A program made the translations under genes and the position numbers. A stretch of DNA of 56,306 nt, taken from positions 1 to 56,306 of the IMG/VR virus record IMGVR_UViG_3300025888_000014; one strand, 5' to 3'. The notes below the pieces were generated by a model. It was not told where the DNA came from. It did no database searches and saw nothing but the letters and a program-made list of their open reading frames with translations. The DNA is from a virus (lineage: Duplodnaviria > Caudoviricetes). Shown here piece by piece: positions 1 to 55,436 of this stretch. How positions within the stretch are numbered: the stretch's first letter is position 1; the number at the start of each line of letters is the position of its first letter.

Positions 1-127
1 GTCGAGGGCCAGCAACGACTTTCAACTTGCGGGATCATACCAGCCCACCGGGAACTACCAGACGGGCAGCCAGCCGCTGAGCAACCTGACGGCTAATCCT
101 TCTTTGTACCAGGCCACGAACACCACG
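1..127 (+). repeat. Exact copy of 55973..56099 (part of the 351-bp fibre repeat; contig break)
   Basis: Base-by-base identity for 127 nt, then divergence (TTGACC vs CTTACC). Confidence 0.95.
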
Positions 128-3100
128 TTGACCCAGTGGTCGACTATCCCGACGAACTACGTGCCGCCGCAATCGGGCCATGCAACCAACTCGGACCTAG
201 CAACCTTGGCGACTACGGCGATCACCAGCACCAACGCACAAACTTCGATGGTATCCAGTAACACCATCGGGCTGACGAACTTGACTGCGGGTTACCTCGT
301 GAAGTCTCTGGGTGGGAGTGTCGTAACTAATTCGCCCATTTATATTAATGGCAGTAGTCTTTTAGTGGGTACAACCAATAGTGATGTCGGCGGGACTTCA
401 GCGGGGTCGATTATTAAACCAGCAGGCCAAATGTATTTAGCAACCTCTAATTCTTCCGCCTGGAATAATTATCAGTTGAGTTTGGACAACCAGAACAACG
501 CTAGCAATTTACCAAATATTGTGTTCGGTAAAAAGGGAAACATTAAAGCGTATATCGGCTCCGAAGGGTTGTTGAATGGGTCTTTGAATGGCCAGTTGAC
601 ATTCGGTTTAATGACTTCCGCCGGGGCGACTGTGGAGAAAATGAGAATGGATAGCAACGGCAGTTGGGGAATGTCAAACACTCTAACCGTTGCTGGAAGC
701 GTTACTGCAAATTCATTGATACTGAATGGTGCTGCTAGTGGTAACGGAACTTTTGCAGTTCCGAATGCGGCGGGTGCTTTGAAATGGGTTTTCCCAAGCA
801 GCGCGGGTTCAAGTGGATACTTTCTGCAAGGAGACGGGGGGCCAGGTGGAGTTGTGACTTTTAGCATGGCTCCAAATATGATCACGACGAATGTGTTTGG
901 ACTTACTTCCATCAATGGTTCTACGAATCCTGCGCAAACATTGGCAGCTGATCCAGGTGTGTCAATTACTACGACCGGGGCAACAACCAGGATTGGCATG
1001 GCTGCATCCGCTTTGACAATGGGCGCTGGGCTTTCGGGCGGGACGTACAACGTGAGTTCAAATGTGACTGCTGCGGTGGTTTTTGGCGTCACGGCCGGCA
1101 CTTCCATCCAGGGCGACGATATTTCTAGGACAAATAACAGGTATCCGACAGACCATTCTGGTAATACAGTCACCAGTGCGGTGGCCCTGGCCACCTTGGC
1201 GACTACAGCGATCACCAGCACCAATGCTTACAACGTCGTTGGTTTGACGAACCTAACGGCGGGTTACCTAGTGAAATCGTTAGGCGGCAGCGTGGTGACT
1301 AACTCACCAGTGTTCACCGATGGAACGAATACCGGCTTTGGGACAATCACACCAGGGTATATTTTAGATGTCAATGGACCAGCAAGAATAGGGTATCCCG
1401 ACTATACATACACTCCACAACCCCTTTCTCTTTTTGGATCTGATGCCGGTATAAGTATTTTTTCAACTAATACTGATGTCGGTGCAGAGTCCTATGTTGC
1501 AGCGTTCATGAAAGATGGGGCTGGTACATACAGGAAAGTAGGAGCGGACGCTTTTCAATGGACGGACCCTAACGTAACCAATGGTTACGCTTCGTGGAAT
1601 GTTCATACAACATCCTTTACAAATGGTGTTACTTCGGATAATTTTGGATTAACAGTCTGGGCAAAACATGGTGCGGCCTTTTTCCCTTCTAGTTTAAGCG
1701 GTTCACTAGCACCCGGATTAAACACACTCAGAATTTATGGTAATAATGCGTGGATGGGTAATGGTAACGAGGGTCAACTCCAGATTTACAGTACTAACAG
1801 TTATGGAAGGCTTTTAATCGGTTACGATACGACAAGTGATTTTGGATTTATTCAACCAGTAAAGATCGGTTCTGGATGGACGAACTTGGTTCTTAATCCA
1901 TCGGGTGGTTATGTTGGCGTCCACAACACGAATCCCGTTGCAAATCTTGATGTTAACGGCACTATGCGTGTCGGTACTGGAGCTGGTTGGGGTTCAATGT
2001 ACCCTTTAGAACTCGTTGGCGATAATGCTGGACTTGCTATAACATCCACAAACACAGCATTGGGCACTGAATCGTACGTAGCATCTTTCATCAAAGACTC
2101 AGCGGGAGCATACAGAAAGCTGGGGGCAATTTCATTTAACTGGGCGGATAATGATGCAGTCGATGGTTATGCTGCATGGAATGTTCACACAACCGTGTTG
2201 AATGCCGGTGTACCAACAGATTTGTACGGTTTGACAGTGTGGGCAAACCACGGGGCGGCCTTTTTTCCAGCCAATCCAACCAGCGCCAGTGCTCCTGGGA
2301 AAGGTGTAGTTAGGTTCAACGGAGATAATAACAACAATGATCTTGGACAAATATTTATTGTGGGTACGACAGATGTAAACCAAAGGTTAACCTTAGGATA
2401 TAATACTACAAGTGATTATGGATTTTTAGCGGCATACAAGACTGGATCTGGCTATAAACCTCTAGTGCTGAGTCCGGATGGTGGTGGTGTAGGGATTGGC
2501 ACGACGCCGACGGCTGTGTTTCACACAAAACCTGCAACTGGAACGATTACTGGATTATCAAATGCAGTTTCAAATGCGTCGGCCTTTTTTGAATCTGGAT
2601 CATCAACATGGGGGTTAGCAGTTGGTTATCTTCCAACCGTAGTAATGGGTTTGCAAGTAGTGGATAAAGCACAGACTGGAAGTTCCACACTTGCCCTTAA
2701 TCCATACGGTGGGAATGTGATTGTCTCGAATAATCTAGCCGTGGCTGGAACGATCACTGGTTCGATAGCTGGGAGTAACATTACCAGCGCGGTATCAAAT
2801 GCGACTACGGCGACCAGTTCAACCTACGCCGGGATTGCGACGAACTTGTTGGGTGGCGAGCTTGATCCGGGATTCACGGCAGTCAGCAATCTATTTGCAC
2901 CCAAAGCAGCCCCTAAATTCACGGGACTAATTACCATTGGCGGAAACAGGTTTGGTTCTATGTATGCGGGAGATAATTATTATTATGCCGGTTCGAACTC
3001 GTTTGTAGTCGAGAACTGGTTGGGGACTCATGATATTTTTACCGTACTCAGCAACGGTAATGCTACGTTTACGGGAACCATAACTGCGCCCACGGTGGTA

Positions 3101-5209
3101 TCTACCAACCTGGTTGGCAATGCTACCATGGCTACCAACGCGAACCTGGCCACGCTGGCGACGACGGCCATAACCTCGACCAACTCTTACAACGTCGTTG
3201 GTTTGACGAACCTAACGGCGGGTTACCTAGTGAAATCGTTAGGCGGCAGCGTGGTGACTAACTCACCAGTGTTCACCGATGGAACGAATACAGGATTCGG
3301 GACTGTCACGCCGGGGGCGATGATACAAGTCAATGGTACGAGTGCTTTGTATGGCGATATTAATGCCGGATCGTCCGCATTGTTAAACACGTCCACTGCG
3401 GTGAACGGCACGGGTGGAGGCAGTCGGCAGTTTGACGCTTCATTTACAGGAGCAAGTGCAACCGGGTTCACCGGAACGGATTCATCGGATTCCGCACGCG
3501 GTTATTTTCCTGTGACCATCGTGGCCGGAAGGTGGTATAGAATATCGGCGACAACAGTCACGACTAATAGTAATCTCACAACTCTGTTCACAGCTACCGG
3601 ACTTAATTATGTGTTGAACACGGTTGAATCAATTGCAATTCCCGCAGTGTCCGGCACGGTTTATGATTTCCACGCGACCGGAAACGCATCTTACATTGGA
3701 TTCGCCATGACATATACGAGCGGAACAATGTCATTGGTTGTTTCCAACTTCTCGATTGTGGAACTTGGAACTACACTGGTAACCAGTCTCGGAAACGTGG
3801 GAATGTCAAATAACCTCACCGTGGCGAGCAACATCTACGCTGCGAACCTCGGCACCATCGCGAGCCGTGGCAGCAATGAGTACGCTCTGGTGAGTCATAG
3901 CAATGCATGGAGTACAATCACCGGCATTCCGATCTTCACGGATGGAATGGCTATCGGAATCGGCACGACGAACCTATGGAACACGCTAGTAGTCAGTGAT
4001 GGTACTGAAAAGAACATTGAGTTTGTTACTGGAAGTTCGCCGGGCATATTGAGTTATGATAGAATAGCGGACACGTATCTTCCATTAGACTTTTACGCTT
4101 CTGGCGCAACTCCAACACTTCACCTAAACACCAATGGCAACGCGACATTTGCGGGTGTAGTGACTGCTCCATCTCTGACTTTAACTGGCTTGAGTTCAGG
4201 CACGGACACGAACTTTCTGACGATTGACGGCTCTGGCGTGGTGCATTATCGAGTCGGCGGCGTGAATGGAACCAACGGTTTACCGGGAGCCAAGGGTGAT
4301 AAAGGGGATACCGGGAATACGGGAGCGGCAGGAACCAACGGTGTGGGAATTGCTGGAACCAACGGTTTGAACGGGACCAACGGATTAGCAGGAGTCAAGG
4401 GCGACAAGGGGGATACGGGAAACACAGGACTGTCCGGGACCAATGGACTTTCGGGAACCAATGGGCTGGCTGGATCGCCAGGATTGAATGGCACGAACGG
4501 AATTAACGGGACCAATGGTTTAACCGGTTCTCAAGGCGTTTCCGGCACGAATGGACTTGCTGGTTTGAATGGTACGAACGGCATGGCGGGTTCTCCGGGT
4601 GCGGCGGGAACTAATGGATTGGCGGGCTTGAATGGGACCAATGGCCTGCCTGGCGCTACGGGCGCGGCTGGCACCAACGGCCTGAACGGGGTCGGCATGA
4701 CCAACATCATAAACAAGGGGAATACCAACTATTCGCTCGTGTCTGGAAGTAATGGGGTTTTGAGCCTCAGCGCAGAGGACAGCAGTATTACCCTGACCAG
4801 CCAGGGGACAAACATCGCAATTCGAGCAAACTCGACGGGAACGGGCGTTAGCGGATACGCTATTAAATGGACAGGTTCCACGACTTATAATTATTACACT
4901 GCGGCACTTGATGTATCTGGGGTTACAGTTCTAATAATAACAAACCAATCATCATATTTCACTGTCAGCGGCATAGCCGGTGGGTTTGCTGGACGAATGG
5001 TAAAAATTATGAACATGTCTAACGGGGATGTTACCTTTAACCATTTGGGTCATAGTAACACAGGTGATGGATTCAGTCCCGAACCTTCAACAGTAAATTC
5101 AATTGTTCAGTGGGGGTCGGTGCTTGAATATGATGTCTTAGGAAACGGATATTCCAGAGAACTAATCCATAATGGTACTAACTGGGTGGAATTTGTCGGA
5201 ACATATTAA
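2..5209 (+). CDS. Giant tail fibre/adhesin-like protein, C-terminal part (5' end lies at 55437..56306)
   Basis: Frame is open from position 2 (TCG AGG GCC...), upstream of the track's TTG at 104. It is T/N/G/S-rich with fibre-type VGIGTT-like motifs, a duplicated ~190-aa domain and a collagen G-X-Y tract. Its first residues continue the repeat unit of the ORF at the window end. Confidence 0.8.
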   Translation, partial: SRASNDFQLAGSYQPTGNYQTGSQPLSNLTANPSLYQATNTTLTQWSTIPTNYVPPQSGHATNSDLATLATTAITSTNAQTSMVSSNTIGLTNLTAGYLVKSLGGSVVTNSPIYINGSSLLVGTTNSDVGGTSAGSIIKPAGQMYLATSNSSAWNNYQLSLDNQNNASNLPNIVFGKKGNIKAYIGSEGLLNGSLNGQLTFGLMTSAGATVEKMRMDSNGSWGMSNTLTVAGSVTANSLILNGAASGNGTFAVPNAAGALKWVFPSSAGSSGYFLQGDGGPGGVVTFSMAPNMITTNVFGLTSINGSTNPAQTLAADPGVSITTTGATTRIGMAASALTMGAGLSGGTYNVSSNVTAAVVFGVTAGTSIQGDDISRTNNRYPTDHSGNTVTSAVALATLATTAITSTNAYNVVGLTNLTAGYLVKSLGGSVVTNSPVFTDGTNTGFGTITPGYILDVNGPARIGYPDYTYTPQPLSLFGSDAGISIFSTNTDVGAESYVAAFMKDGAGTYRKVGADAFQWTDPNVTNGYASWNVHTTSFTNGVTSDNFGLTVWAKHGAAFFPSSLSGSLAPGLNTLRIYGNNAWMGNGNEGQLQIYSTNSYGRLLIGYDTTSDFGFIQPVKIGSGWTNLVLNPSGGYVGVHNTNPVANLDVNGTMRVGTGAGWGSMYPLELVGDNAGLAITSTNTALGTESYVASFIKDSAGAYRKLGAISFNWADNDAVDGYAAWNVHTTVLNAGVPTDLYGLTVWANHGAAFFPANPTSASAPGKGVVRFNGDNNNNDLGQIFIVGTTDVNQRLTLGYNTTSDYGFLAAYKTGSGYKPLVLSPDGGGVGIGTTPTAVFHTKPATGTITGLSNAVSNASAFFESGSSTWGLAVGYLPTVVMGLQVVDKAQTGSSTLALNPYGGNVIVSNNLAVAGTITGSIAGSNITSAVSNATTATSSTYAGIATNLLGGELDPGFTAVSNLFAPKAAPKFTGLITIGGNRFGSMYAGDNYYYAGSNSFVVENWLGTHDIFTVLSNGNATFTGTITAPTVVSTNLVGNATMATNANLATLATTAITSTNSYNVVGLTNLTAGYLVKSLGGSVVTNSPVFTDGTNTGFGTVTPGAMIQVNGTSALYGDINAGSSALLNTSTAVNGTGGGSRQFDASFTGASATGFTGTDSSDSARGYFPVTIVAGRWYRISATTVTTNSNLTTLFTATGLNYVLNTVESIAIPAVSGTVYDFHATGNASYIGFAMTYTSGTMSLVVSNFSIVELGTTLVTSLGNVGMSNNLTVASNIYAANLGTIASRGSNEYALVSHSNAWSTITGIPIFTDGMAIGIGTTNLWNTLVVSDGTEKNIEFVTGSSPGILSYDRIADTYLPLDFYASGATPTLHLNTNGNATFAGVVTAPSLTLTGLSSGTDTNFLTIDGSGVVHYRVGGVNGTNGLPGAKGDKGDTGNTGAAGTNGVGIAGTNGLNGTNGLAGVKGDKGDTGNTGLSGTNGLSGTNGLAGSPGLNGTNGINGTNGLTGSQGVSGTNGLAGLNGTNGMAGSPGAAGTNGLAGLNGTNGLPGATGAAGTNGLNGVGMTNIINKGNTNYSLVSGSNGVLSLSAEDSSITLTSQGTNIAIRANSTGTGVSGYAIKWTGSTTYNYYTAALDVSGVTVLIITNQSSYFTVSGIAGGFAGRMVKIMNMSNGDVTFNHLGHSNTGDGFSPEPSTVNSIVQWGSVLEYDVLGNGYSRELIHNGTNWVEFVGTY
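1227..1332 (+). repeat. 106-bp exact direct repeat within the fibre gene (second copy 3186..3291; diverged third copy ~270..340)
   Basis: Identical DNA encoding YNVVGLTNLTAGYLVKSLGGSVVTNSPVFTDGTN; preceded in all three copies by LATLATTAITSTN. Confidence 0.9.
4259..4696 (+). repeat. Collagen-like (G-X-Y)n tract dominated by GTN triplets
   Basis: GVNGTNGLPGAKGDKGDTG...GAAGTNGLNGVG in the translation. Confidence 0.9.
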
Positions 5210-7896: not shown

Positions 7897-7981
7897 CCTA
7901 GTTTTCTTCAACGCCCGACTTCATTTTATGACCAATTGCAAATCGTTTGCAGTTGTGGTTGAAAATAACTTAAATTATTGT

Positions 7982-8010
7982 TTGACACGGGATGCTTAAT
8001 AATTTACTTT
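7982..8010 (+). promoter_or_regulatory. sigma70 promoter of the early/replication operon, leaderless
   Basis: TTGACA(7982)-N17-TACTTT(8005)-N6-ATG(8017), with AT-rich upstream sequence. Confidence 0.7.
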
Positions 8011-8016
8011 CGCGTC

Positions 8017-8175
8017 ATGGCAAATATTCCAGTTTCGCAGAACGAACCAAAACAGTGGACGTTTGAACCCAACATTACCGTGCGGGAAAAGGTCAAGGAG
8101 ATCATGGTAAAAACAAAACTCAAGCGAACACCCATTCTCAACCGCCTCTGCGAAACTGGACGATTGAAAGGCTGA
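8017..8175 (+). CDS. Small ribbon-helix-helix (Arc/CopG-like) DNA-binding protein
   Basis: 52 aa; strand-helix-helix pattern QWTFEP...VREKVKEIMVKTKLKRTPILNRLC; first gene after the promoter. Confidence 0.5.
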   Translation: MANIPVSQNEPKQWTFEPNITVREKVKEIMVKTKLKRTPILNRLCETGRLKG

Positions 8176-8177
8176 CC

Positions 8178-8417
8178 ATGTTTACCCTATACCTCAGCGC
8201 ATTGATTTGTGCGATCGCCATAATAATCTGGCTCGTCCTATGGACCTGCATCAAACAGAAAGCGATCTGGTGGAAATGCTCATGGTGCCATTGGTACTTT
8301 TCAAGCGATGGCGCTTTGGTACCATACCGGCATTTATCCGATGCGTCAGACCCAGTGAGCCACGGAATCTGCCCGGCGTGCGCCCGAAAGATCGAAGAAA
8401 GCGAAAAGCTAAAATAA
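8178..8417 (+). CDS. TM-anchored zinc-ribbon protein
   Basis: N-terminal TM, CSWC...SHGICPAC. Confidence 0.65.
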   Translation: MFTLYLSALICAIAIIIWLVLWTCIKQKAIWWKCSWCHWYFSSDGALVPYRHLSDASDPVSHGICPACARKIEESEKLK

Positions 8418-8640
8418 TTTCCTGGCAGCCAGAGTGTGTCGTCAGAACGCTCAAGCTAAAAACACTCAACCGGGCTTGCAAAGACGGGGCTGCCGGGGAT
8501 TCAATTTCTGATCGAAACCAAAGCAATTAGTGACACCCATTTAACAAAATGCGTTTCTATCTTTCTAATCGCGGAGGTTTTCGCTTCCGCTGATTGGCGG
8601 GGCCGATCAGATCAATCACAGTAAAACAAAACCAAAACCT

Positions 8641-9090
8641 ATGGCAAAGAAAACAAATAAATTCGACGCTCCCAGCGAGGGAGTAAAAGCCGGTGCGCCG
8701 GGCGATGAAACGCCCGTGGTAATTTCGGAGGGAAATCCGAAGCCGGTAAAGTTCAAAAAGAACGGCGATCCGTTCAAAGTTCGTGGGCCAAGCGGGCCGC
8801 GCACGGTCAACCCGAAAATCGAGGCATTCAAGAAAACACAGAAGGATGCCTTGGAAGCATTCGTGACTGACCAAAAGGGTAAACGCTGTTTTTTCATGCG
8901 GGATCTACGTGTCGAATCCGACGCGGCCAAGTTACAGGCCAGGATGGAAAAGACGTGCCAGAGACTATCTCCGGTGCAGTTGGGATGGTTGGATAAACAG
9001 GCCGAAAAGAGGCTCGCCGAAAAAGCGGCCAAGGCGAATGCCCTTCATCCCGATCCTGTGCCGGAAGAACAGCAAAACGACCAACCCTAA
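8641..9090 (+). CDS. Hypothetical protein
   Basis: 149-aa ORF after an A/C-rich leader. Confidence 0.7.
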   Translation: MAKKTNKFDAPSEGVKAGAPGDETPVVISEGNPKPVKFKKNGDPFKVRGPSGPRTVNPKIEAFKKTQKDALEAFVTDQKGKRCFFMRDLRVESDAAKLQARMEKTCQRLSPVQLGWLDKQAEKRLAEKAAKANALHPDPVPEEQQNDQP

Positions 9091-9096
9091 CATCAT

Positions 9097-9182
9097 GGGC
9101 GGCGTAGGGCGCGAAGCCCGGGTCGGGATGCATACGTCCCGAACACCAAGTAAGGTTCGAAACCTTCGCCGTCCGTCAACCA
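9097..9182 (+). ncRNA. tRNA-like cloverleaf element (non-canonical)
   Basis: Acceptor GGGCGGCG/CGCCGTCC, D-like arm GGGC/GCCC, central arm TCGGGATG/CGTCCCGA, T-arm AAGG-TTCGAAA-CCTT, downstream ACCA; exactly fills an intergenic gap. Confidence 0.5.
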
Positions 9183-9190
9183 AAACAATT

Positions 9191-9388
9191 ATGACGAAAC
9201 TCGAAGAACTCAAAGCGGTAGAAACCCAACTCTACAAGGAAATGAAGGCGCTTGAAGATCCGCTAGATGCTAAGCGGAGCGAATGGTCCACTGCGTTCTC
9301 AGCAGTCCAGAAAGCCGAGCGTTTTGCAGAACTCGACCAGCAATATGCCGACGAAAAACTGCTGAAGGAGCAAAATGGAAACGCCTGA
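9191..9388 (+). CDS. Small coiled-coil hypothetical protein
   Basis: MTKLEELKAVETQL...; overlaps the next gene's start. Confidence 0.65.
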   Translation: MTKLEELKAVETQLYKEMKALEDPLDAKRSEWSTAFSAVQKAERFAELDQQYADEKLLKEQNGNA

Positions 9389-10379
9389 CAGCCTGCCTAA
9401 TCCGTTTTCTGCGGCTCGGATTGTGGGCATTGATACCGACCCGAACGCCTATCACAAGCTCCAGGGCGAGCGGGGCAAGCCCGAATTTATCGTCAGCAAC
9501 TCGATGCTGAAGGAGTTTTCCAAGTGCCCGCGCAAGTGGCGCGTTGGCGGCGAACCGGAGCGGGACTCTGACGCCTGTCGGTGGGGCGAACTCCTTGACG
9601 CCCGCGTGCTATCCCCGAAACAATTCGGAAGCCGATTCTCCATCATACCGGCCCAGTACCAGGATGCCAAAACGGGCGAGATGAAGGATTGGACATTCGC
9701 CGCGAATGTCTGCAAGGAGTGGCGAAAAGACCACACCGGGACCATTCACGTCAAAACCGATGAAATGGACGGGGCCGATGATGCCATTGGGCGTCTCCAG
9801 AACGACGAAGGGATCGCCGCGTTGCTCGCCTGCTCTCAAACCCAAGTCCACGTCGCCGCCGAATACCGCGACCGCGCAACCGGATTGACGGTGCCGGTCA
9901 AGGGACTTATAGACTTGGCGCCGTCGAAAGATTCAGAATTCTTCCGCACCCATTTGGCCGATCTGAAAACAGCACGAGACGGCTCGCCGTCAAAATGGAA
10001 GCGAGAAGTGTTCAGTTACGGTTACCACATCCAAGCTGCATTCTATCTCGACATGTTTAACGCCGCCACGGGTGAGGCTCGCGATGGGTTTTACCACGTC
10101 GTCTCAGAGAATATTCCCCCATACGAGCCGGCCCAGTATCTTCTATCTCTGGAATTCATCGAAGTTGGTCGGCGGTTCTATCGGGCCGCGCTCGCATTTT
10201 ATTGCCAGTGCCTAAACCGAGACGAGTGGCCCAGCTACGGTTTTGGACTGAATCAGATTAACGGTTGGACGATTTGCGAACCCGAAGCTTGGATGGTAAT
10301 CACCGAGGGGGTTCAATCGTTTCCTGACGATCCAAAACACGAAACCAATAACGAACAATCTGACGACATCACACCATGA
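9375..10379 (+). CDS. RecE/exonuclease VIII-like PD-(D/E)XK nuclease (DUF3799-like)
   Basis: YH...SNSMLK, KGLIDL...ADLKT, YGYHIQAAFY motifs. Confidence 0.85.
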   Translation: METPDSLPNPFSAARIVGIDTDPNAYHKLQGERGKPEFIVSNSMLKEFSKCPRKWRVGGEPERDSDACRWGELLDARVLSPKQFGSRFSIIPAQYQDAKTGEMKDWTFAANVCKEWRKDHTGTIHVKTDEMDGADDAIGRLQNDEGIAALLACSQTQVHVAAEYRDRATGLTVPVKGLIDLAPSKDSEFFRTHLADLKTARDGSPSKWKREVFSYGYHIQAAFYLDMFNAATGEARDGFYHVVSENIPPYEPAQYLLSLEFIEVGRRFYRAALAFYCQCLNRDEWPSYGFGLNQINGWTICEPEAWMVITEGVQSFPDDPKHETNNEQSDDITP

Positions 10380-10397
10380 GATTTTCTTCCAAGTCAC

Positions 10398-10425
10398 TTG
10401 ACACGCTTTGAATCTGTGTCATATT
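10398..10425 (+). promoter_or_regulatory. sigma70 promoter of HNH cassette 1
   Basis: TTGACA(10398)-N16-CATATT(10420). Confidence 0.55.
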
Positions 10426-10437
10426 AAAAGTGCTAAC

Positions 10438-10545
10438 ATGAATTACGGTCAACAAAATTATCCGCTTGCGAGCGTTTTAGAAACGCACTTCCCGCTTCCG
10501 TGGGTCATGTTAGCAGCGCAAGCGGAATTCTGTTGTTGCTTATGA
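10438..10545 (+). CDS. 35-aa leader peptide spanning a regulatory hairpin, coupled to the HNH gene
   Basis: MNYGQQNYPLASVLETHFPLPWVMLAAQAEFCCCL; its TGA overlaps the HNH ATG (ATGA at 10542). Confidence 0.5.
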   Translation: MNYGQQNYPLASVLETHFPLPWVMLAAQAEFCCCL

Positions 10546-11006
10546 GAACATCTCAAGTTCTAAAAACTCGTGGCCGTCGCGTTTATTATCACGCTGAAGG
10601 CAATCCACATTGGAAGGGCGGAACTTATCGCCATCACGGACGGGTTCAGGTGCTATGCCCTGACCATCCAAACTCAGGACAGAATAATTACGTGCTTCGC
10701 GCTAGATTAGTAATGGAAAAACAATTGGTCCGTTTTCTTAATCAAGACGAAGTGGTTCACCACATCAATCATGTAACCGATGATGATAGGATTCAGAATC
10801 TTCAACTGATGACTATTTTGGAGCATAACACGTATCACGCTCAGCACCAAACAAATGGACGTTGGGCAAGGAATTTTGATTGCTGTGCCCAGTGCGGGAC
10901 TAAAGAAGTTCCGCACGCAGGACGCGGATTATGCAACCGATGTAATGACAAAAGACGTTGGCCCGAGAAGTGGGCGCGTTTGAAAGCGAGACAAAATGCC
11001 ATTTGA
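10542..11006 (+). CDS. HNH homing-type endonuclease (HNH_3-like) with C-terminal zinc finger
   Basis: NPHWKGG, RLVMEK, EVVHHINHVTDDDRIQNLQL, CxxC...GLCxxC. Confidence 0.85.
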   Translation: MRTSQVLKTRGRRVYYHAEGNPHWKGGTYRHHGRVQVLCPDHPNSGQNNYVLRARLVMEKQLVRFLNQDEVVHHINHVTDDDRIQNLQLMTILEHNTYHAQHQTNGRWARNFDCCAQCGTKEVPHAGRGLCNRCNDKRRWPEKWARLKARQNAI

Positions 11007-11985
11007 AATAAAAACAGCTACCAGAACAGGCGTTCGTCCTCTTCTTGGATTTTACGGTAAATCCTCATCGGGCAAGACTATGAGCGCGTTGCTTGTAGGC
11101 CGTGGCATCGTTGGGCCGAAAGGTAGGGTTGTTCTATTGGACACGGAGAGCGGGCGAGGATCGCTCTTTGCCGATTGCATACCAGGCGGTTATTCCGTCA
11201 TGAACCTCGAACCACCGTTCTCCCCAGCCCGCTACCAGGAAGCCATTGAGGTCGCCGAAGCGCAAGCGGATATTGTGATAGTGGATAGTCTAACTCATTG
11301 TCATAATGGCGACGGTGGCATTTTGGATATGCAGGAGGCCGAACTTGACCGCATGGCTGGAAGCGATTGGAAAAAGCGTGAGGCGTGCAAAATGGCGGCA
11401 TGGATCAAGCCAAAGTTAGAGCACAAGAAGTTCATCGGGCGATTGCTTCGGTTGAAATGCGGACTGATTTGTTGTCTGCGGGGCGAGGAAAAAGTTCACA
11501 TGGTAAAGGACGAGGGTAAAACTAAGATCGTTACCGACCAGTTTTCCAGCCCGATTTTCGATAAAAATTTCATCTTTGAGTTGCTCATCAACTTTGAGAC
11601 GATTTCAGTAAACGGGGAGGGTGGATTTGTGATTCCCAGGAAGATTACCCATCCGTCAATTAAGCCATTGTTGCCCAAGGAAGGAGAGCAGATCGGAATT
11701 GCGTTCGGTGAGGCCCTGGCCCGATGGTGCGCTGCCCCTGGCGCCACGCTGCCCGCCAGCGCACCGCAAGCGCCGGAGGGTGCCAAGACGCCACCCGACC
11801 CGCTCAAGGCCGCCAAATCTAAACTGTGGTCGCTTTACAAGCCGTTCTGCAAGTCCGTAGCAGAGGCTGAAACCCAGTTGCGGACATGGAACATCATCAC
11901 GGCGGAACAAACGCTCGCTGGATTGACCCTGCCGCAAATCGAGGAAGCCATCGAGAAAACCGAACTTCAGCTAAAGGGCGAATGA
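10996..11985 (+). CDS. Sak4-like AAA ATPase (single-strand annealing/recombination)
   Basis: Walker A GKSSSGKT, LDTESG, Walker B IVDSLTH; next to the RecE-like nuclease. Confidence 0.8.
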   Translation: MPFEIKTATRTGVRPLLGFYGKSSSGKTMSALLVGRGIVGPKGRVVLLDTESGRGSLFADCIPGGYSVMNLEPPFSPARYQEAIEVAEAQADIVIVDSLTHCHNGDGGILDMQEAELDRMAGSDWKKREACKMAAWIKPKLEHKKFIGRLLRLKCGLICCLRGEEKVHMVKDEGKTKIVTDQFSSPIFDKNFIFELLINFETISVNGEGGFVIPRKITHPSIKPLLPKEGEQIGIAFGEALARWCAAPGATLPASAPQAPEGAKTPPDPLKAAKSKLWSLYKPFCKSVAEAETQLRTWNIITAEQTLAGLTLPQIEEAIEKTELQLKGE

Positions 11986-12170
11986 CGGGTTATCTTTTAA
12001 TGGGAATCGTGCTTTGGCCTGCGCTGAGAGACGCGGGCGCAACATCAAAACCTAATTGCTATTGGAACAAGGACTTCGGTTGACTATAGGAACGCGGCTT
12101 GAACCGCAAGGGACTCTCGCCCTAAAACTCTGCCGGTGTCGATTCACCGGCAGACTTGTAAGGCGACAAA

Positions 12171-12362
12171 ATGAAAACTAAACCTGATATTAAAAAGTTA
12201 GCCGTCGAAATCTACAAGGTGGCGCTTCGCGGAGCCGGGGAGTCTGTGAAGGATCGAATCCCATGGGATGACCTTGACGGACACGATAAGAATGCTCTGA
12301 TTGCGATAGCGCGGTGGCATTTGCGCGAAGTCAAAAAAGCGGTGGATGCCGTGGTATGGTAA
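12171..12362 (+). CDS. Hypothetical protein
   Basis: 63-aa ORF in operon orientation. Confidence 0.6.
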   Translation: MKTKPDIKKLAVEIYKVALRGAGESVKDRIPWDDLDGHDKNALIAIARWHLREVKKAVDAVVW

Positions 12363-12375
12363 AAAGGACAAACCC

Positions 12376-12594
12376 ATGAACCTCGCGCGTGAACGAATGC
12401 TTGCCCGCGTGCGGAAGCAGGCACAAAGGGCTTTCCCGGTGCTTGGACAGTGTGAAGATTGCCCTTGGTTCAGGGCAATCCATAGACATCACGACGATTA
12501 TGAAAAGCCGTCAGAAATCAGAATGTTGTGCCAAATGTGCCACACGGATTGGCACGTCAAACGGAGATCGTGGGGAAGGATGAAATGCTTATGA
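12376..12594 (+). CDS. Small HNH-like zinc protein
   Basis: CEDC...HRHHDDYEKP...LCQMCH..WH; start uncertain. Confidence 0.6.
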   Translation: MNLARERMLARVRKQAQRAFPVLGQCEDCPWFRAIHRHHDDYEKPSEIRMLCQMCHTDWHVKRRSWGRMKCL

Positions 12595-12716
12595 AAACCA
12601 CAGATCGTTGCTCTAAAACTCCAAACCATCGCCATTCATGGTGCGGTTGGTATCGCCACAATCGACTGGTGGGCAACAAACATTGCCTGTTCTGCGGGAA
12701 GGTGAAAAGAAAATGA
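12591..12716 (+). CDS. Small Cys/His protein
   Basis: ATGA overlaps at both ends; CLFC motif. Confidence 0.5.
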   Translation: MKTTDRCSKTPNHRHSWCGWYRHNRLVGNKHCLFCGKVKRK

Positions 12717-12883
12717 ATGCCCGGATCCAAATCGACTATGACAAGAAATGCGCGAAATGCGGCCGCGCCGGTGCCTGCCCAAACGGCTGGTGCCTGGGCT
12801 GTAACTCGAAAAAGGTGGACGCGCTTTTGGCACAAAAACTGCCAAAAAACCCTTTGACAGCGCCTGCGGGTGTGCTAGATTAA
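12713..12883 (+). CDS. Small zinc-finger protein
   Basis: CAKC...CLGC. Confidence 0.55.
   Translation: MNARIQIDYDKKCAKCGRAGACPNGWCLGCNSKKVDALLAQKLPKNPLTAPAGVLD
12854..12881 (+). promoter_or_regulatory. sigma70 promoter of HNH cassette 2 / replication genes
   Basis: TTGACA(12854)-N16-TAGATT(12876) with extended TGn. Confidence 0.6.
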
Positions 12884-12927
12884 CGCTAACGAGACGGATG
12901 TTTCGCCGCGACTGACCCTCGCCATAG

Positions 12928-13044
12928 ATGATGAGCATTATTACACAATCTTCGGTTTGGCGCTCCCGTGGGGGATTCTCCGGCTCCTGCTGGAAATGCT
13001 CGCTCGGGTCAAAGCGGGAGCGCCAAACCGCGCATCATTTATGA
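12928..13044 (+). CDS. 38-aa leader peptide spanning a regulatory hairpin, coupled to the HNH gene
   Basis: MMSIITQSSVWRSRGG...AHHL; TGA overlaps ATG at 13041. Confidence 0.5.
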   Translation: MMSIITQSSVWRSRGGFSGSCWKCSLGSKRERQTAHHL

Positions 13045-13373
13045 CGTACTCCGACCGACTAAAAGATCCGAGATGGCAGCGCAAAAGGCTGCAAATTTTC
13101 GACCGCGATAATTGGAGGTGCCTAGAATGCACCGCAGAATCGAAGCAACTCCAGGTTCATCACATCGTTTATCTGAATCGCGATCCATGGGATTACCCCG
13201 ATTATCTCTTCCAAACTTTTTGCGAACCTTGCCACAAGGAACGCCAAGAACTCACCGATAAAATCGTAAACGCCGTGAAAATGGCCATTGCGCCAGTTCC
13301 AACAATCAGACTCATTCCAACCGCGCTCGAAATATGCTCGCAAGCCATGCTCAAAATCGAGGTGGGAATATGA
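13041..13373 (+). CDS. HNH endonuclease-like protein
   Basis: YSDRLKDPRWQRKR..RD..RCLEC..LQVHH..CEPCH. Confidence 0.85.
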   Translation: MTYSDRLKDPRWQRKRLQIFDRDNWRCLECTAESKQLQVHHIVYLNRDPWDYPDYLFQTFCEPCHKERQELTDKIVNAVKMAIAPVPTIRLIPTALEICSQAMLKIEVGI

Positions 13374-14095
13374 AATGGCTCAACCTGGAACTGGCCAAGC
13401 TCCGGTCACCGGAATACATCGGCAGCGATCCGGTCCACCGGGCAACGTGGTTGAGTCTGACGGCTTATTGTGCAGAACAGGAAAATGGCGGTATCATTCG
13501 AGATTGCGCCGGGTGGAAGAGCCGAATGTGGGAACAGTCCGCCGGCGTCACAAAAGAGGAAGTGTCCGACGATTCCATGCTCTGGAAATGGGATGGAAGT
13601 TCAGTCAAAGTATGGGCCTATCCCGCCGAAAAGGAAGCTGAGGTTCAAGCTAAGCGTGAAGGTGGATATGTGGGCGGAAAAGCCTCTGGAAAAGCACGAA
13701 AAGAAGCTTCCCGCAAAGCATCCATCGAACCTCAGCTTAAAGCTGAGCTTAAAGCTGAGCTTGAACGGAATGGAATGGAAGGGAAGGGAAGTGGAAAGGA
13801 AGTGGAAGGGAATATCCCCTTGGATTCTTCTGAAATGATTCCAGAAAAACCAGATTGGGCGCCAACGTGGAATCAATGTCGGTTTTGGCTGGCTGATGTT
13901 CAAAAGAACGGTGCGAATTATACTGAACCCGAAACCAATACCGCATTCCTGGCGCTCAACGCTAACGGTTGGATGTGGGGGAAAAATCCAGTGGTTGACT
14001 GGCGTTCTGCAATCGAAAGTCGAATTCAAACCGACAGGAATCATAAACCAACAGGATCAAAACCAGAGCGCAAGGGGATGCTCTTCATGCCATGA
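13370..14095 (+). CDS. Putative replication initiator (lambda O-like architecture)
   Basis: Helical N-domain, central low-complexity linker with DNA repeats, C-terminal DWRSAI motif; directly upstream of the primase-helicase. Confidence 0.6.
   Translation: MKWLNLELAKLRSPEYIGSDPVHRATWLSLTAYCAEQENGGIIRDCAGWKSRMWEQSAGVTKEEVSDDSMLWKWDGSSVKVWAYPAEKEAEVQAKREGGYVGGKASGKARKEASRKASIEPQLKAELKAELERNGMEGKGSGKEVEGNIPLDSSEMIPEKPDWAPTWNQCRFWLADVQKNGANYTEPETNTAFLALNANGWMWGKNPVVDWRSAIESRIQTDRNHKPTGSKPERKGMLFMP
13675..13811 (+). repeat. 12-bp periodic iteron-like array plus GGAA purine tract (candidate origin)
   Basis: Eight 12-mers in phase (e.g. GCTTAAAGCTGA x2), inverted repeat CTCAGCTT-A-AAGCTGAG, then GGAAT/GGAAG repeats. 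Confidence 0.55.
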
Positions 14096-15756
14096 CGTTA
14101 ACCGATTTTATTTCACGGTTCGAGAAGAAGACCAAGACGATTAATGGTTTTATTGTTCGATGTCCGGCGCACGAAGACGGGACTGCCTCCCTTTCCGTGG
14201 CCGAAGGAAAGGACTGCGCCATCATCCTGAAATGCTTCGCGGGCTGCAAAACCGAAAGCGTTCTGGCGTCTCTGGGACTCACGTTCAAGGACTTGTTCAA
14301 AGACGCGCCAGCAAAACTATTCAACGTGCCCGCGCCCAGGAAGCCGGTTAAACCTGAATCCACTGAAAAACCCGTCATTGAGAAAATCTACAGCTACCAG
14401 GACAAGTTCGGGACCGAGCATTATCAGGCGATCCGATTAAAACCGAAGTCGTTTCGTCAACGGCACAAGGTTGGGACCGAGTGGGTTTGGAATATGGACG
14501 GCGTAGAGCGGGCGCTTTACCACTTGCCGGAAGTGCTCTCGGCCAAGGAGGTGTTCATCGTTGAGGGCGAAAAAGACGCCGACAACCTGACCTCCCTGGG
14601 ATTGGTTGCTACCTGTAACGTGGGAGGCGCTGGCAAGTGGATGGACGGCTACACCGAGGCCCTAGCCGGCAAGGACGTGGTGCTCTGTGGGGACAATGAC
14701 GAGCCGGGCCGGAAGCACATGGGACTCGTGTTTGACTCGATTGCCGGGACTGCGAAGACGGTAAAAATAATCAAGGTGCCTGAAATCTTGAAAGATGTTA
14801 GCGACTACATAGCGACATTCAAAACGCCAGAAGAGGCCAAACACGCAATTCAAAACATCGTAGATAATTCGTATCCGCACGTCAGAGGAACAAAGTTGCC
14901 AATTTACGCAATACACGAACTCGAAGATCCTTACCGACGTTTGGTGCGGAGCTTTGACAAGGGATCGTTTTCGCTTGGAAAGTGGATTCCATCACTTGGA
15001 AAGATTCGCGCTCTGATTCCGGGGGAGCTTATGGTTGTGCAAGGGGACACCGGAACGGGAAAAACTGGAATTCTGCAAAGCATCGCCCGAGCCGCCCTTC
15101 CTCTTCCAACACTTATGTTCGAGTTGGAACTGCCGAAAGAAATGATGTTTGAACGGTTTATAAGCATGACTCACAACATGACGGGCCAGGCTGTAGAAGA
15201 CATTTACCGATCAGAATATGGTGAAAAAGAATCAAATGCGGCGGAGATTAAAATCCTGTTGAATGGTTTATTCATTTGTCCAGAGGCTCGGCTTACGATT
15301 GAGCAGATTGAGAACTACGTTGTACGGGCGGAACTGAAAATGGGCGAACGCCCAAAGGTCGTGTTGGTTGACTACATCCAATTAATCGGAGGGTCCGGCG
15401 AGAATCGGCGCGACAGGTTTTCAAATATCTCTGAAGGATTAAAGGTCATGGCGAATAAAACCCAGACCATTGTAATATTGGCCAGCCAAATAGCCCGACA
15501 GAAAGAAGAGGAAGAACCGGGACTCCATAGCGCGAAAGAATCTGGCAGCATCGAAAATAGTTGTGGAATCCTGTTGAGTGTTTGGCGGGACTCAAAAGAC
15601 CCTACACTTTTAAGTATCCGTGTTTTGAAAGCAACCAAAGGCGGGGCAGGTTTGCTCGTAGAATGCAACTTTGATGGAGCAAAAATGAAAATAACTGAAC
15701 GGGGCAAAATAGATCGAAGCGATTGTCCTTCTAACGCCCAAACCAACGATCCCTGA
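14092..15756 (+). CDS. Primase-helicase (zinc-binding + TOPRIM + DnaB-like SF4 helicase)
   Basis: CPAHED..CFAGC; VEGEKDAD, DNDEPG; Walker A GDTGTGKT, VDYIQL, ASQIAR, SGSIE. Confidence 0.92.
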   Translation: MTLTDFISRFEKKTKTINGFIVRCPAHEDGTASLSVAEGKDCAIILKCFAGCKTESVLASLGLTFKDLFKDAPAKLFNVPAPRKPVKPESTEKPVIEKIYSYQDKFGTEHYQAIRLKPKSFRQRHKVGTEWVWNMDGVERALYHLPEVLSAKEVFIVEGEKDADNLTSLGLVATCNVGGAGKWMDGYTEALAGKDVVLCGDNDEPGRKHMGLVFDSIAGTAKTVKIIKVPEILKDVSDYIATFKTPEEAKHAIQNIVDNSYPHVRGTKLPIYAIHELEDPYRRLVRSFDKGSFSLGKWIPSLGKIRALIPGELMVVQGDTGTGKTGILQSIARAALPLPTLMFELELPKEMMFERFISMTHNMTGQAVEDIYRSEYGEKESNAAEIKILLNGLFICPEARLTIEQIENYVVRAELKMGERPKVVLVDYIQLIGGSGENRRDRFSNISEGLKVMANKTQTIVILASQIARQKEEEEPGLHSAKESGSIENSCGILLSVWRDSKDPTLLSIRVLKATKGGAGLLVECNFDGAKMKITERGKIDRSDCPSNAQTNDP

Positions 15757-15771
15757 AAACCGGAGTTTAAC

Positions 15772-15969
15772 ATGAAAACAAAATTCTCATACGCTGATAC
15801 CGTTGCAGCATTCATCGGACACGGACTAACCATGCCCGCGACGTCTAAATCGACCGTCGAACAGATCGCTGGAAGAATTCGACACCGCGAATACCGCGCG
15901 CGCCGGGATAAAAAACGTCGGATGAAAGAGGCGGCGCTGACTCCCACCCCTGAAACCAAAACTTTATGA
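15772..15969 (+). CDS. Basic hypothetical protein
   Basis: GGAG RBS; ATGA overlap downstream. Confidence 0.6.
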   Translation: MKTKFSYADTVAAFIGHGLTMPATSKSTVEQIAGRIRHREYRARRDKKRRMKEAALTPTPETKTL

Positions 15970-16274
15970 GCACTGAAAAACGAGAATGCCCGCCCTTTCA
16001 CAGACCGCCTACTGCCGCCGCTCAGATTGAAGAGTGGGATGAGGAAAAGGCAGCAAAGAAGACGACGCCACCACCGACCGATGATCCGACTCCACTTCCC
16101 AGCGACCTGGTTGCCGCCGGGGATGCGCTTCTCCACGCATTGCGGTCAACCCAAGAGCAAAGCGGATGCGAGTGCGGTGACTTCGGGCCATGCAGGCGAT
16201 GCACCGCGGCCAGCATCGAAGCCGCCGACGCCAGCCAGGCGTGGGCAGAGGCGAAGAAGGAAGCCAGCGTATGA
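15966..16274 (+). CDS. Hypothetical protein
   Basis: Overlap chain; CEC..CRRC. Confidence 0.6.
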   Translation: MSTEKRECPPFHRPPTAAAQIEEWDEEKAAKKTTPPPTDDPTPLPSDLVAAGDALLHALRSTQEQSGCECGDFGPCRRCTAASIEAADASQAWAEAKKEASV

Positions 16275-18294: not shown

Positions 18295-18517
18295 GAATGC
18301 CATTTGCGCCCTAACCCTATCGCCAAGGACGCATTTTCAGCCGTCGAGGGTATCAAAGTGCTACCCGGACACCAAAATGAGTTCTAGATGCCATACAGCG
18401 CCACTACGAGCAATATGGGTAAATTGACCCATTTTAAGCTTTTCCCGTCGCGGGCATATAGCCGGTGGATGGCGCCGGTCTCGGGTTGTGCCCGTCATTA
18501 ACACCGCGCGGGAAACG

Positions 18518-18550
18518 AAAAGCCCGGCAGGTTTATCGCCTGCCGGGTTT
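18518..18550. terminator. Probably bidirectional intrinsic terminator between convergent operons
   Basis: AAAAG-CCCGGCAGG-loop-CCTGCCGGG-TTT. Confidence 0.75.
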
Positions 18551-18583
18551 GCGTTCGCAGTATCACCGTATCGGGTCAGACTG

Positions 18584-51420: not shown

Positions 51421-52784
51421 AAATTACTTTCAATCTCCGTTCCCCCGTTTGCCTTCATTATCTCCCAAAGAACACGGTGCCAGTTCTGGTCATGGCCGAA
51501 AACGAAATCCGGGAAATCCTTTTTGATCGAATCCCACCACGCCTTGCTGAAAGCGAACATGTCAACGGCAGGATGATATTGCCCGCCAATTGATCGGTGG
51601 GCAAAGCATGGCGACTTTGCCAAAATCTCTTTTCCAATTCCCGGCCAAAACTTGAAGTTCGCCCGAGTCAGGCAAATCACGTCATCGTCATTGGCCATTT
51701 GTCGGGCGCGTTGCACAATGTCCCGGACGAAGGGCAATCGCTTTGTTTCCTTGGCGTCAATCAGGCGAGAATCTCGACCGAATGCGCCTATGCCAAGGCG
51801 GCAGGAAATCCATTCGCAAGAAGTCTCAAGATATTCCTCTTCCCAAGACTCGGAGACTTCCTCATGTTCCGTCTTGGCTTCCTTCGCATCTTTCGGCGAC
51901 CAAACGTCAGCAGGTGTCCAGACGTGAATGATATGTTGATCTTCTTTTTCATAAAAACCATCCATGAATGAGGCTAGTCCTTTGATATTCTCAATCGCGT
52001 GCAGCATGTCAACCGCCTCCGCCGCGAAGTCGCTGTAGCGGATGTGGGCAATGTGGTTTGGCCTCCATGCCGACCCGTACCACAACCGGGGCTTGTCCTG
52101 AACCAAGGCGACCACGGGCAGCGTCATAACCGCCCTGGCGAGATGTAGGGGCGCGCTGTCCGTGGTCACCAAGACGGTTGCCTGCTCGAATAATCCGAGC
52201 AGGTCATAAATTCGATGGCATTTGATCTCCGAGATATCGATGATGTTGTACTGCGGAAATTGTAGGCGAAGCAGTATCATCAACAGATCGGTGTATGAGA
52301 ATGGCGATGACGTGCCCGACGTGCAAACCAACATGATCGGTTTGCTGGGGCCGCGATGCTTCTTCGGCAACCATCCTGCCCCTCTCACGGGATCGCGCTG
52401 GTCTATCACCAGCGGCAGGGTGCCCCATTCGGCCAGTCTGCCGGCCAGTTTCCACGCCTCTTTGTCGAAAGCGTCCGTGACGAAATGGTCAGAGCCAATC
52501 TGCGCATAGGCCAGGGCCTTCACCGTCTCCGCTGACCCGCCCGTCTGGCAGACCTTCACATCATAGGACAGTTTGACGGCATCGGCGTGGGCGCGGGCGA
52601 GTTCAAGCCAGTTGCCGTCAAAGACCACGCAATCCGCATAGGACACACCGTCCATGATGTTGGCGTATTCCTTGGCGACCATAATGGCGGAGCGGTGGCC
52701 GTCTTGGGCATCCGCCCAGAGCAGGGGCAGAATGTTCAGGATGTCGCCGTACCTTCCCAAACAGATATAGATGCGCTGATTCAT
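51417..52784 (-). CDS. GT9 (heptosyltransferase-like, GT-B) glycosyltransferase with extra C-terminal domain
   Basis: LGRYGDIL..LP and VTTDSAPLHLA motifs. Confidence 0.8.
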   Translation of the reverse strand: MNQRIYICLGRYGDILNILPLLWADAQDGHRSAIMVAKEYANIMDGVSYADCVVFDGNWLELARAHADAVKLSYDVKVCQTGGSAETVKALAYAQIGSDHFVTDAFDKEAWKLAGRLAEWGTLPLVIDQRDPVRGAGWLPKKHRGPSKPIMLVCTSGTSSPFSYTDLLMILLRLQFPQYNIIDISEIKCHRIYDLLGLFEQATVLVTTDSAPLHLARAVMTLPVVALVQDKPRLWYGSAWRPNHIAHIRYSDFAAEAVDMLHAIENIKGLASFMDGFYEKEDQHIIHVWTPADVWSPKDAKEAKTEHEEVSESWEEEYLETSCEWISCRLGIGAFGRDSRLIDAKETKRLPFVRDIVQRARQMANDDDVICLTRANFKFWPGIGKEILAKSPCFAHRSIGGQYHPAVDMFAFSKAWWDSIKKDFPDFVFGHDQNWHRVLWEIMKANGGTEIESNL

Positions 52785-55417: not shown

Positions 55418-55436
55418 AAATTCCATGCCTTTACTC

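Follow-up and report, generated by a model that had tools for sequence, protein, structure and literature searches.

What does a long, imperfect palindrome do when it lies directly on the start of a phage endonuclease gene that opens a replication gene cluster? The question is raised by IMGVR_UViG_3300025888_000014, a complete IMG/VR virus record (Caudoviricetes) of 56,306 bp from peat metagenomes, the whole of which we analyzed and refer to as the window. On its plus strand, a promoter-like site, a hairpin of about 121 nt, and a short open reading frame (ORF) precede the gene for a small HNH endonuclease, HNH2, which is followed by a gene of conserved position and by a primase-helicase gene. 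The structure exists and is exceptional within its genome; it is most simply explained as occlusion of the HNH2 start by a hairpin non-homologous to those already described, possibly one that has only just been born. On this reading, to which we assign a probability of roughly 0.45, HNH2 translation would be throttled in cis by an mRNA leader hairpin specific to this lineage.

An earlier, sequence-only reading of the locus had placed the stem arms, the loop words, and the leader words at coordinates that all prove exact on direct reading. Its perfect 16-bp stem is likewise recovered by an inverted-repeat search, as a 16-nt pair, 100% complementary, with a 46-nt spacer. This is the only perfect 16-bp inverted repeat with a spacer of 3 to 200 nt in the genome, and each of 12 shuffles contained none. 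Positions 12921 to 13050 rank first among 5,618 segments of 130 nt by GC-corrected folding energy (z = -4.27), and the leader folds at -69.9 kcal/mol (z = -4.09), a stability reached by 0 of 200 shuffles. The stem is far beyond chance expectation. Nor is the hairpin an assembly artefact, because contigs of three sequencing runs carry it unchanged (X1, X2, and X3 [record 10, 12947-13198]); X1 and X2 are possibly the source sample. A contig of a fourth run, X4, covers 12845-13042 with 4 differences in 198 nt (98% identity) beside a rearranged upstream region; the one difference that could be placed, at 12875, falls in the promoter spacer. Two other 130-nt folds in the genome are very stable, at 52081-52210 (z = -4.15) and 18431-18560 (z = -4.10), the latter including a minus-strand terminator-like hairpin at 18520-18550.

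The predicted fold is larger than the stem-loop first described: the stem exists, as the core of an imperfect palindrome made up of an outer helix, a 17-nt bulge on the 5' side, a core of 16 to 17 bp, and a partly paired apical region. In the outer helix (duplex energy -14.6 kcal/mol), 12923-33 and 12935-36 pair with 13033-43 and 13030-31; in both minimum free energy (MFE) and ensemble calculations, 12923-12933 pairs with 13033-13043 at probabilities of 0.99 to 1.00. The HNH2 AUG (13041-43) is predicted to lie opposite CAU at 12923-25, and the leader AUGAUG (12928-33) opposite CAUCAU at 13033-38. Opening the region from -20 to +15 around the HNH2 AUG is predicted to cost 25.0 kcal/mol, more than at any of 60 crude gene starts of this genome (median, 11.0; maximum, 20.3), and the starts of five orthologous HNH genes would open for 2.9 to 9.8 kcal/mol. 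The leader AUGs would open for 10.1 and 7.5 kcal/mol, near or below the genome median, or for 14.9 kcal/mol when folding begins at the predicted transcript start. Shine-Dalgarno-like motifs are few (at 16 of 46 gene starts) and are lacking at HNH2 and at its orthologues, so that initiation in this host probably benefits from an open start region.

We propose that transcripts from the promoter-like site at 12854-81, or read-through transcripts of the upstream genes, would fold into the irregular hairpin, its G+C-rich core of 16 to 17 bp ending 10 nt before the HNH2 AUG and its outer helix of 11 to 13 bp pairing that AUG and the 10 nt upstream of it with the leader-AUG region. Direct initiation at HNH2 would be strongly reduced, since a system with few Shine-Dalgarno-like motifs would need an open start, and the next gene would still be translated by means of its own purine-rich pre-start sequence. 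Ribosomes that enter at the leader AUG, the more accessible of the two starts, and melt their way through the hairpin might account for residual HNH2 by reinitiating at AUGA; alternatively, endonucleolytic processing of the long helix might do so. The element itself may have arisen when the ancestral HNH start region was copied, by template switching or as an inverted duplication. In favor of such repression, the strongest local fold of the genome buries the start that is the most occluded of those compared, and a second, unrelated HNH gene of this phage (HNH1) is also preceded by a promoter-like site, an inverted repeat, and a short ORF. The patchy distribution of HNH1 and HNH2 among relatives and their atypical codon usage are, moreover, as expected of semi-selfish genes whose expression is kept low.

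Table 1. Coordinates of the features discussed, numbered from the first letter of the window.
Feature	Coordinates	Strand	Details
Locus 1	10398-11006	+	Promoter-like site 10398-10425, ORF 10438-10545, HNH1 10542-11006
Locus 1 inverted repeat	10431-48/10498-515	+	15/18 matches, 83%; crossing helix 10461-70/10518-27
Small Zn-ribbon-like ORF	12713-12883	+	CxxC...CxxC, 56 aa from ATG 12713; GAAGGTGA motif upstream
Promoter-like site (putative promoter)	12854-12881	+	TTGACA-16-TAGATT, TG before -10, 10/12 matches
Small 6-bp hairpin	12890-12905	+	In MFE structures; near the putative transcript 5' end
Leader segments	12913-12939	+	TGACCC 12913-18 and GAGCATT 12933-39, complementary to the loop words
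Whole imperfect palindrome (long hairpin)	12923-13043	+	About 121 nt; from MFE and ensemble pair lists
Outer helix, 5' strand	12923-12936	+	Holds leader-ORF AUGs 12928 and 12931; predicted partner 13030-13043
Leader ORF	12928-13044	+	38 codons, spans the hairpin, ends in ATGA on HNH2 ATG 13041
Core stem, 5' arm	12953-12968	+	CGGTTTGGCGCTCCCG; core duplex energy -33.7 kcal/mol
46-nt "loop"	12969-13014	+	Partly self-paired in the predicted fold; holds AATGCTC 12995-13001 and GGGTCA 13006-13011
Core stem, 3' arm	13015-13030	+	CGGGAGCGCCAAACCG
Outer helix, 3' strand	13030-13043	+	Includes HNH2 AUG 13041-43
HNH2	13041-13373	+	110 aa, CxxC...HH...N...CxxCH; PHROG 144, 119, 589 at E 1e-13
Positionally conserved gene (formerly "initiator")	13370-14095	+	Iteron-like repeats 13635-13815
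Primase-helicase	14092-15756	+	Zn-ribbon, Toprim, DnaB_C

The gene that the hairpin precedes is, by motif and family match, an HNH endonuclease (Table 1). Its residues C27/C30, H40-H41, N46, and C61/C64-H65 supply the beta-beta-alpha-metal motif; the product scores 15.1 bits against Pfam HNH, under the cut-off of 21.4, and has no other domain match. The HNH frame upstream of 13041 is coding-like (score, 0.17) and includes an in-frame ATG in the loop at 12996; we kept 13041 as the start because four of five orthologues begin at Met-Thr-Tyr, only L003 having an N-terminal extension. The overlap of the leader ORF with this start, which the sequence-only reading had counted as part of the design, is present, as are further ATGA overlaps at 13370-73 (HNH2 and the next gene) and 14092-95 (the next gene and the primase-helicase gene). 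As evidence of design it finds no support: the orthologues all begin ATGAC (Met-Thr), so that a TGA in the +1 frame is inherent and any open upstream frame would end on the start. The codon-usage score of the leader ORF is -0.21, a value as low as which was found in 0 of 3,000 in-frame gene segments and which is equalled or exceeded by 13% of out-of-frame segments. The leader ORF does not look coding-like, and, as it also has no Pfam match, we rejected the view of it as a real small protein. Codon usage is atypical in both HNH genes as well, HNH1 (10542-11006) scoring -0.08 and HNH2 (13041-13373) 0.07, at the 1st and 5th percentiles of in-frame segments, which would fit a foreign or mobile origin.

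Relatives in IMG/VR and metagenomes, with primase-helicases of 42 to 59% identity, place the element in its lineage. Among 14 loci searched by tblastn, 5 carry an HNH2 orthologue directly upstream of the replication genes, at 56 to 61% identity (L097, L096, L099, and L002) or 41% (L003). These five make up the seven closer relatives with upstream sequence together with L093 and L098, in which HNH2 is absent and a promoter-like region directly precedes the next gene. Because these two of seven lack the gene (it is present in 5/7), HNH2 is, judged by gene order, a common but optional first cistron. The promoter of the sequence-only reading reappears in a sigma-70 scan as a promoter-like site within the 3' end of the Zn-ribbon ORF, and a promoter-like site is found in four of the five HNH-bearing relatives, 51 nt (L002), 55 nt (L097 and L099), or 81 nt (L096) before the ATG. 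L002 and the window have TTGACAGCGC in common at this site; L097 and L099 have TTGAAC...TGGTAGAA 55 nt before the orthologous ATG, with a -10 of the TG-n-TAGA type like that of the window. As the corresponding distance in the window is 187 nt, the 106 to 136 nt that bear the hairpin are extra and lineage-specific. Between the promoter-like hexamers and the ATG, inverted repeats of at least 10 nt are missing from all five HNH-bearing relatives, and so is a leader ORF.

Copies of the element were not found elsewhere. A blastn-short search with three leaders against the window and all fetched loci gave no second copy, and IMG/VR yielded no two-armed copy of the hairpin, its loop and flanks never being matched. 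The exact 16-nt arm occurs at 11 IMG/VR loci (L082 and L083 being the same), a single arm each and in unrelated contexts, and the inner arms (10 + 10 nt, gap of 36 to 56 nt) occur at 10 (L121 and L122 being one element on opposite strands), with loops and flanks unrelated to those of the window; both sets are chance matches.

Control of this kind is known from T-even phages, in which stable RNA structures sequester the initiation regions of I-TevI, I-TevII, I-TevIII, segB, and mobE (PMC2988022). The HNH2 hairpin would most simply be analogous, not homologous, to these. As here, the T-even hairpins, that of mobE in Aeh1 included, place a very stable structure over the start of a phage nuclease gene among essential genes, and T-even genomes hold several non-homologous hairpins, one per endonuclease gene (PMC2988022). 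The rationale offered there, that a semi-selfish nuclease is kept low without blocking its neighbors, would also apply to HNH2 (PMC2988022). In T4, however, the Shine-Dalgarno sequence is sequestered, whereas HNH2 has none and the AUG itself is predicted to be paired (PMC2988022). A short ORF runs through the hairpin here, there is no sequence homology, and the structure here is known by prediction only. Closest in form may be seg43(25) of Aeromonas phage 25, for which the same source reports a highly stable hairpin immediately upstream of an endonuclease start, of unproven effect; it leaves the ribosome-binding site free, in contrast to the HNH2 start codon, which lies inside the outer helix (PMC2988022). 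If HNH2 is indeed repressed, uncultivated soil and peat phages poor in Shine-Dalgarno sequences would tame resident HNH nucleases as T4-like phages do, and a start-codon-pairing structure of very recent origin would be a small, clean example of the birth of a regulatory RNA. The case opens no long-standing question. It does carry a warning for annotation, since a promoter, a palindrome, and a short ORF ending in ATGA can come from a conserved Met-Thr start and an inverted duplication.

Several points weigh against cis-acting repression of HNH2. In T4, a late promoter in or next to the structure gives an unfolded transcript (PMC2988022), whereas the promoter-like site here lies upstream of the entire structure. 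Our scan, which covered sigma-70-type promoters and leaves other promoter classes outside its reach, found plus-strand sites only at 12854 and 13099 and none in 12882-13040, so that the sole predicted promoter would always yield the repressed form. No relative carries the element, which leaves neither covariation nor conservation of structure to appeal to, and a perfect stem without diverged copies fits a very recent mutation on which selection has not yet passed judgment. If HNH2 were truly coupled to the downstream genes, its repression would strike the replication genes too, which looks costly. All folding and opening energies are predictions. Finally, occlusion is not the rule in the wider family. 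From 73 HNH2-family loci in IMG/VR we could use 42 for a comparison of opening energies, 31 having been dropped for want of an ATG within 4 codons, for less than 150 nt of upstream sequence, or as duplicates or reversed matches. The family starts have a median of 8.2 kcal/mol, against 12.2 kcal/mol for 84 random ATGs (Mann-Whitney p = 0.04), and at least 20 kcal/mol is reached by 6/42 family starts and 5/84 controls; as far as these predicted energies indicate, start occlusion is an occasional, not a defining, feature of the HNH2 family. Several of the six highly occluded starts appear, by eye in the upstream 25 nt, to follow G-rich, T-tract sequence.

The lineage-specific distribution also bears on the main rival, that the hairpin is a neutral by-product of a recent inverted duplication or template switch, tolerated by the phage and with only incidental effects on HNH2. 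Perfect hairpin stems are known to arise by template switching (PMC8794818), and such cases share with ours a long, perfect stem that appears abruptly in one lineage, with an arm that looks as if it had been copied, inverted, from sequence already present next to it. Apart from a 17-nt interruption, 12923-12968 can be read as the reverse complement of the ancestral 13015-13043 (which ends ...CGCAT..ATGAC); the core is perfect and shows no sign of age; and the element is absent both in all five orthologous leaders and upstream of an 85%-identical HNH2 on a contig of run X4 (43 differences and 2 gaps over 13039-13322), whose 32 upstream nt mismatch the 3' arm of the window. The template-switch work concerns origin, not function (PMC8794818). 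Set against neutrality are the position of the element at the most sensitive point for HNH2 translation, with the AUG itself predicted to pair, the analogous arrangement before the second HNH gene, and the identity of the element in three runs and at 98% in a fourth, which indicates that it persists in the population. We regard a purely neutral origin and fate as rather unlikely, and as the alternative to be taken most seriously.

The remaining explanations fare less well. The hairpin could be a site for RNase III-type processing or mRNA stability, separating read-through RNA from the replication operon and unmasking the HNH2 start. Phage leaders and intergenic regions are known to hold RNase III sites, as in the lambda N leader and the T7 early region, and these resemble our element in having a long, irregular hairpin with an internal loop between promoter and first cistron; cleavage could unmask the start there and here alike, though no family model matches here. 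The approximately 29 predicted pairs, in two coaxial helices with an asymmetric internal loop, have a length compatible with a substrate, and other stable hairpins stand just before gene starts in the early region at 8 to 14 kb (12117-66, 10431-515, and 8023-8165). Rfam offers no family match, however, and the relatives manage without the element, so that we hold this explanation to be distinctly unlikely.

We place at a similarly low level the more ambitious possibility that a riboregulator has been caught at birth, the inverted duplication of the HNH start having produced a two-state leader in a system poor in Shine-Dalgarno sequences. The first state would have the two start codons hidden in the AUG-to-AUG outer helix; in the second, the hairpin would be opened, by a pseudoknot between leader and loop or by ribosomes translating the 38-codon ORF, and ribosomes would be brought to the AUGA junction. 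Such a device would govern when, or how strongly, the first cistron of the replication operon is expressed, and the same solution would have arisen independently before the second, unrelated HNH gene of the genome. Among known designs, the element as such can also be compared with translational attenuation of the erm and cat type, where the hairpin masking the start of a gene is overlapped by a short ORF before it. There, however, ribosomes stall inside, whereas the ORF here spans the whole hairpin and stops on the downstream AUG, a geometry of termination and reinitiation; and the leader ORF here, in contrast to that type, is unconserved and not coding-like.

The switch that had been proposed before, a two-state pseudoknot gating HNH2 and the overlap-coupled replication genes, possibly with the hairpin acting in trans, appears very unlikely. 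The complementary words are present in the loop and the leader, in nested antiparallel order as claimed, yet at a level near chance: nested complementarity of 7 + 6 nt occurred in 1.4% of 20,000 shuffles and in 2.4% of 8,016 genome samples of the same geometry, for a pattern that had been chosen after inspection. The two helices have energies of -8.7 and -7.4 kcal/mol, and their sum of -16.1 kcal/mol, before any pseudoknot loop penalty, is comparable to the -14.6 kcal/mol of the outer helix; their pairing would free the HNH2 AUG, and a toggle is energetically conceivable, though no observation favors it. GAGCAUU, however, overlaps that stronger outer helix, whose pairing probability is about 1.0, and freeing 13031-46 by giving it up would cost 12.7 kcal/mol, again before any loop penalty. 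Locus 1 also has two crossing helices (-22.6 and -19.7 kcal/mol), although its extra pairing is with downstream, not upstream, sequence, so that the two architectures differ. No other site complementary to the leader over at least 12 nt is present in the window that could serve as a target in trans, and the loop-leader complementarity is not conserved in relatives, the element being missing from five of five orthologous leaders, which is an outcome that the sequence-only reading had itself named as refuting.

The link to replication is no firmer. The gene at 13370-14095, which had been called the initiator, matches no initiator family: its product has no credible family match at all (the best, PHROG 15768, of unknown function, has E = 1.5e-4) and shows only short, weak C-terminal similarity to its L002 counterpart. 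It has a start signal of its own, the purine-rich GAGGTGGGAAT before its ATG, and the gene supposed to transmit the control, HNH2, is missing from L093 and L098. Of the earlier inference of RNA-level control, a cis-acting element before HNH2 remains plausible, with a predicted fold that buries the start, and a conserved RNA switch governing replication is unsupported.

Might the palindrome instead act as DNA, a cruciform or hairpin serving as replication origin, single-strand priming signal, or protein-binding site? No palindrome in the genome is stronger, and about 1 kb separates it from the primase-helicase gene downstream. Relatives sharing these replication genes do without it, a 46-nt spacer is atypical of operators, and iteron-like repeats with a purine tract inside 13370-14095 make a better origin candidate; we consider this role highly improbable, and an origin- or telomere-type palindrome was considered and rejected. 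The repeats in question, at 13635-13815, are iteron-like words of the AAGCTGAGCTT type in direct and inverted orientation, accompanied by a purine tract of GGAAG/GGGAA units; judged by sequence, they are a candidate origin of replication, lying within a gene that may encode an initiator or organiser.

Least likely of all is a transcription attenuator, with transcription stopping at the hairpin to give a short leader RNA except where antitermination or leader-peptide translation intervened. The promoter-like site is indeed followed, at about 70 to 150 nt, by a highly stable G+C-rich hairpin through which a short ORF runs, yet its 46-nt loop is atypical, no U-tract follows the stem (CGCAUCAUUUAUG), and a terminator scan found no plus-strand terminator-like site at 12953-13045. 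An intrinsic terminator was rejected on account of the same loop and missing U-tract. A miniature inverted-repeat transposable element (MITE)-like mobile element was rejected because the flanks (...ATCTT and CGCAT...) are not direct repeats and no second copy exists in the window or the fetched loci. HNH-associated guide RNAs of the HEARO and IsrB type are structured RNAs upstream of an HNH-domain ORF; they too were rejected, in that Rfam 15 gave 0 matches at gathering scores and 0 at E values up to 5 in 7900-13200, and HNH2 has only 110 aa and no further domain.

Whether the arrangement at HNH2 is unique within the genome can be judged from locus 1 (Table 1), which the sequence-only reading had taken for a copy of the same architecture. 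A non-homologous promoter-like site, repeat, short ORF, and HNH gene are indeed present there, in looser form. The ORF has 35 codons and ends in ATGA, and HNH1 matches HNH_3 at E = 8.7e-7. The parallel is weaker in that the repeat is only 83% (the genome has 9 of this class where shuffles predict 1.25), its fold comes 64th among 5,618 windows, and the extra pairing lies downstream; the HNH1 start has an opening energy of 16.2 kcal/mol, rank 12 against the 60 crude gene starts. The two loci argue for each HNH gene having its own leader hairpin, not for one defined switch. No HNH1 relatives were found in IMG/VR. HNH1 sits between exonuclease-like and AAA_24-like genes, and the closest complete relative, G001 (L100), has a different 73-aa ORF before its AAA_24-like orthologue and no HNH gene at the orthologous site.

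Two further hairpins stand in the same region. A 22-nt (86%) hairpin at 12117-12166 ends 4 nt before the ATG at 12171; in a variant contig of run X4, the 5' arm has gained Cs after 12137 and 12139, and the 3' arm has gained Gs after 12145 and 12147, of which X3 shows only one insertion. The insertions look compensatory, and this hairpin may be under selection. A third promoter-like site of the TTGACA kind stands at 7982, ahead of an inverted repeat of 19 nt (89%; 8023-41/8147-65) that brackets a 52-aa ORF (8017-8175) of coding-like codon usage; the fold is unremarkable, ranking 987 of 5,618.

Recognizable families in the window are almost confined to the tail fibre and the replication region. 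The record yields no tyrosine integrase, serine recombinase (resolvase), or HTH_3 repressor family, in agreement with the earlier remark that no CI/integrase module is evident, and ARAGORN finds 0 tRNA or tmRNA genes. Among 50,697 deposited phage genomes no close phage was found: blastn with 9300-16000 reached 4 records, each over only 61 to 95 nt within the primase gene. A primase-helicase alignment scan of genome contigs returned 13 distant loci, of at most 32% identity over stretches longer than 170 aa, and pointed to neither a prophage relative nor a host. The record begins within a tail-fibre-like ORF, open at the 5' end (2-5209), and finishes within another ORF, open at the 3' end (55425-56306); the two frames are one base apart, so that a simple circular join would not fuse them.

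On one X4 contig, 10 different letters stand in place of 12718-12844, so that the Zn-ribbon ORF is missing or replaced in a near-identical strain. In L099, a tRNA-like 3' end (recognized by eye from a T-arm of the GGTTCGAGTCC type) lies at 3420-3510, about 170 to 250 nt upstream of the HNH promoter-like site. The primase-helicase of L093 (3570-6191) is a single 873-aa ORF interrupted, exactly at the Toprim VEGEKDA motif, by about 320 extra aa in frame; this insert begins with C and ends ...GN, followed by C, and looks like an intein.

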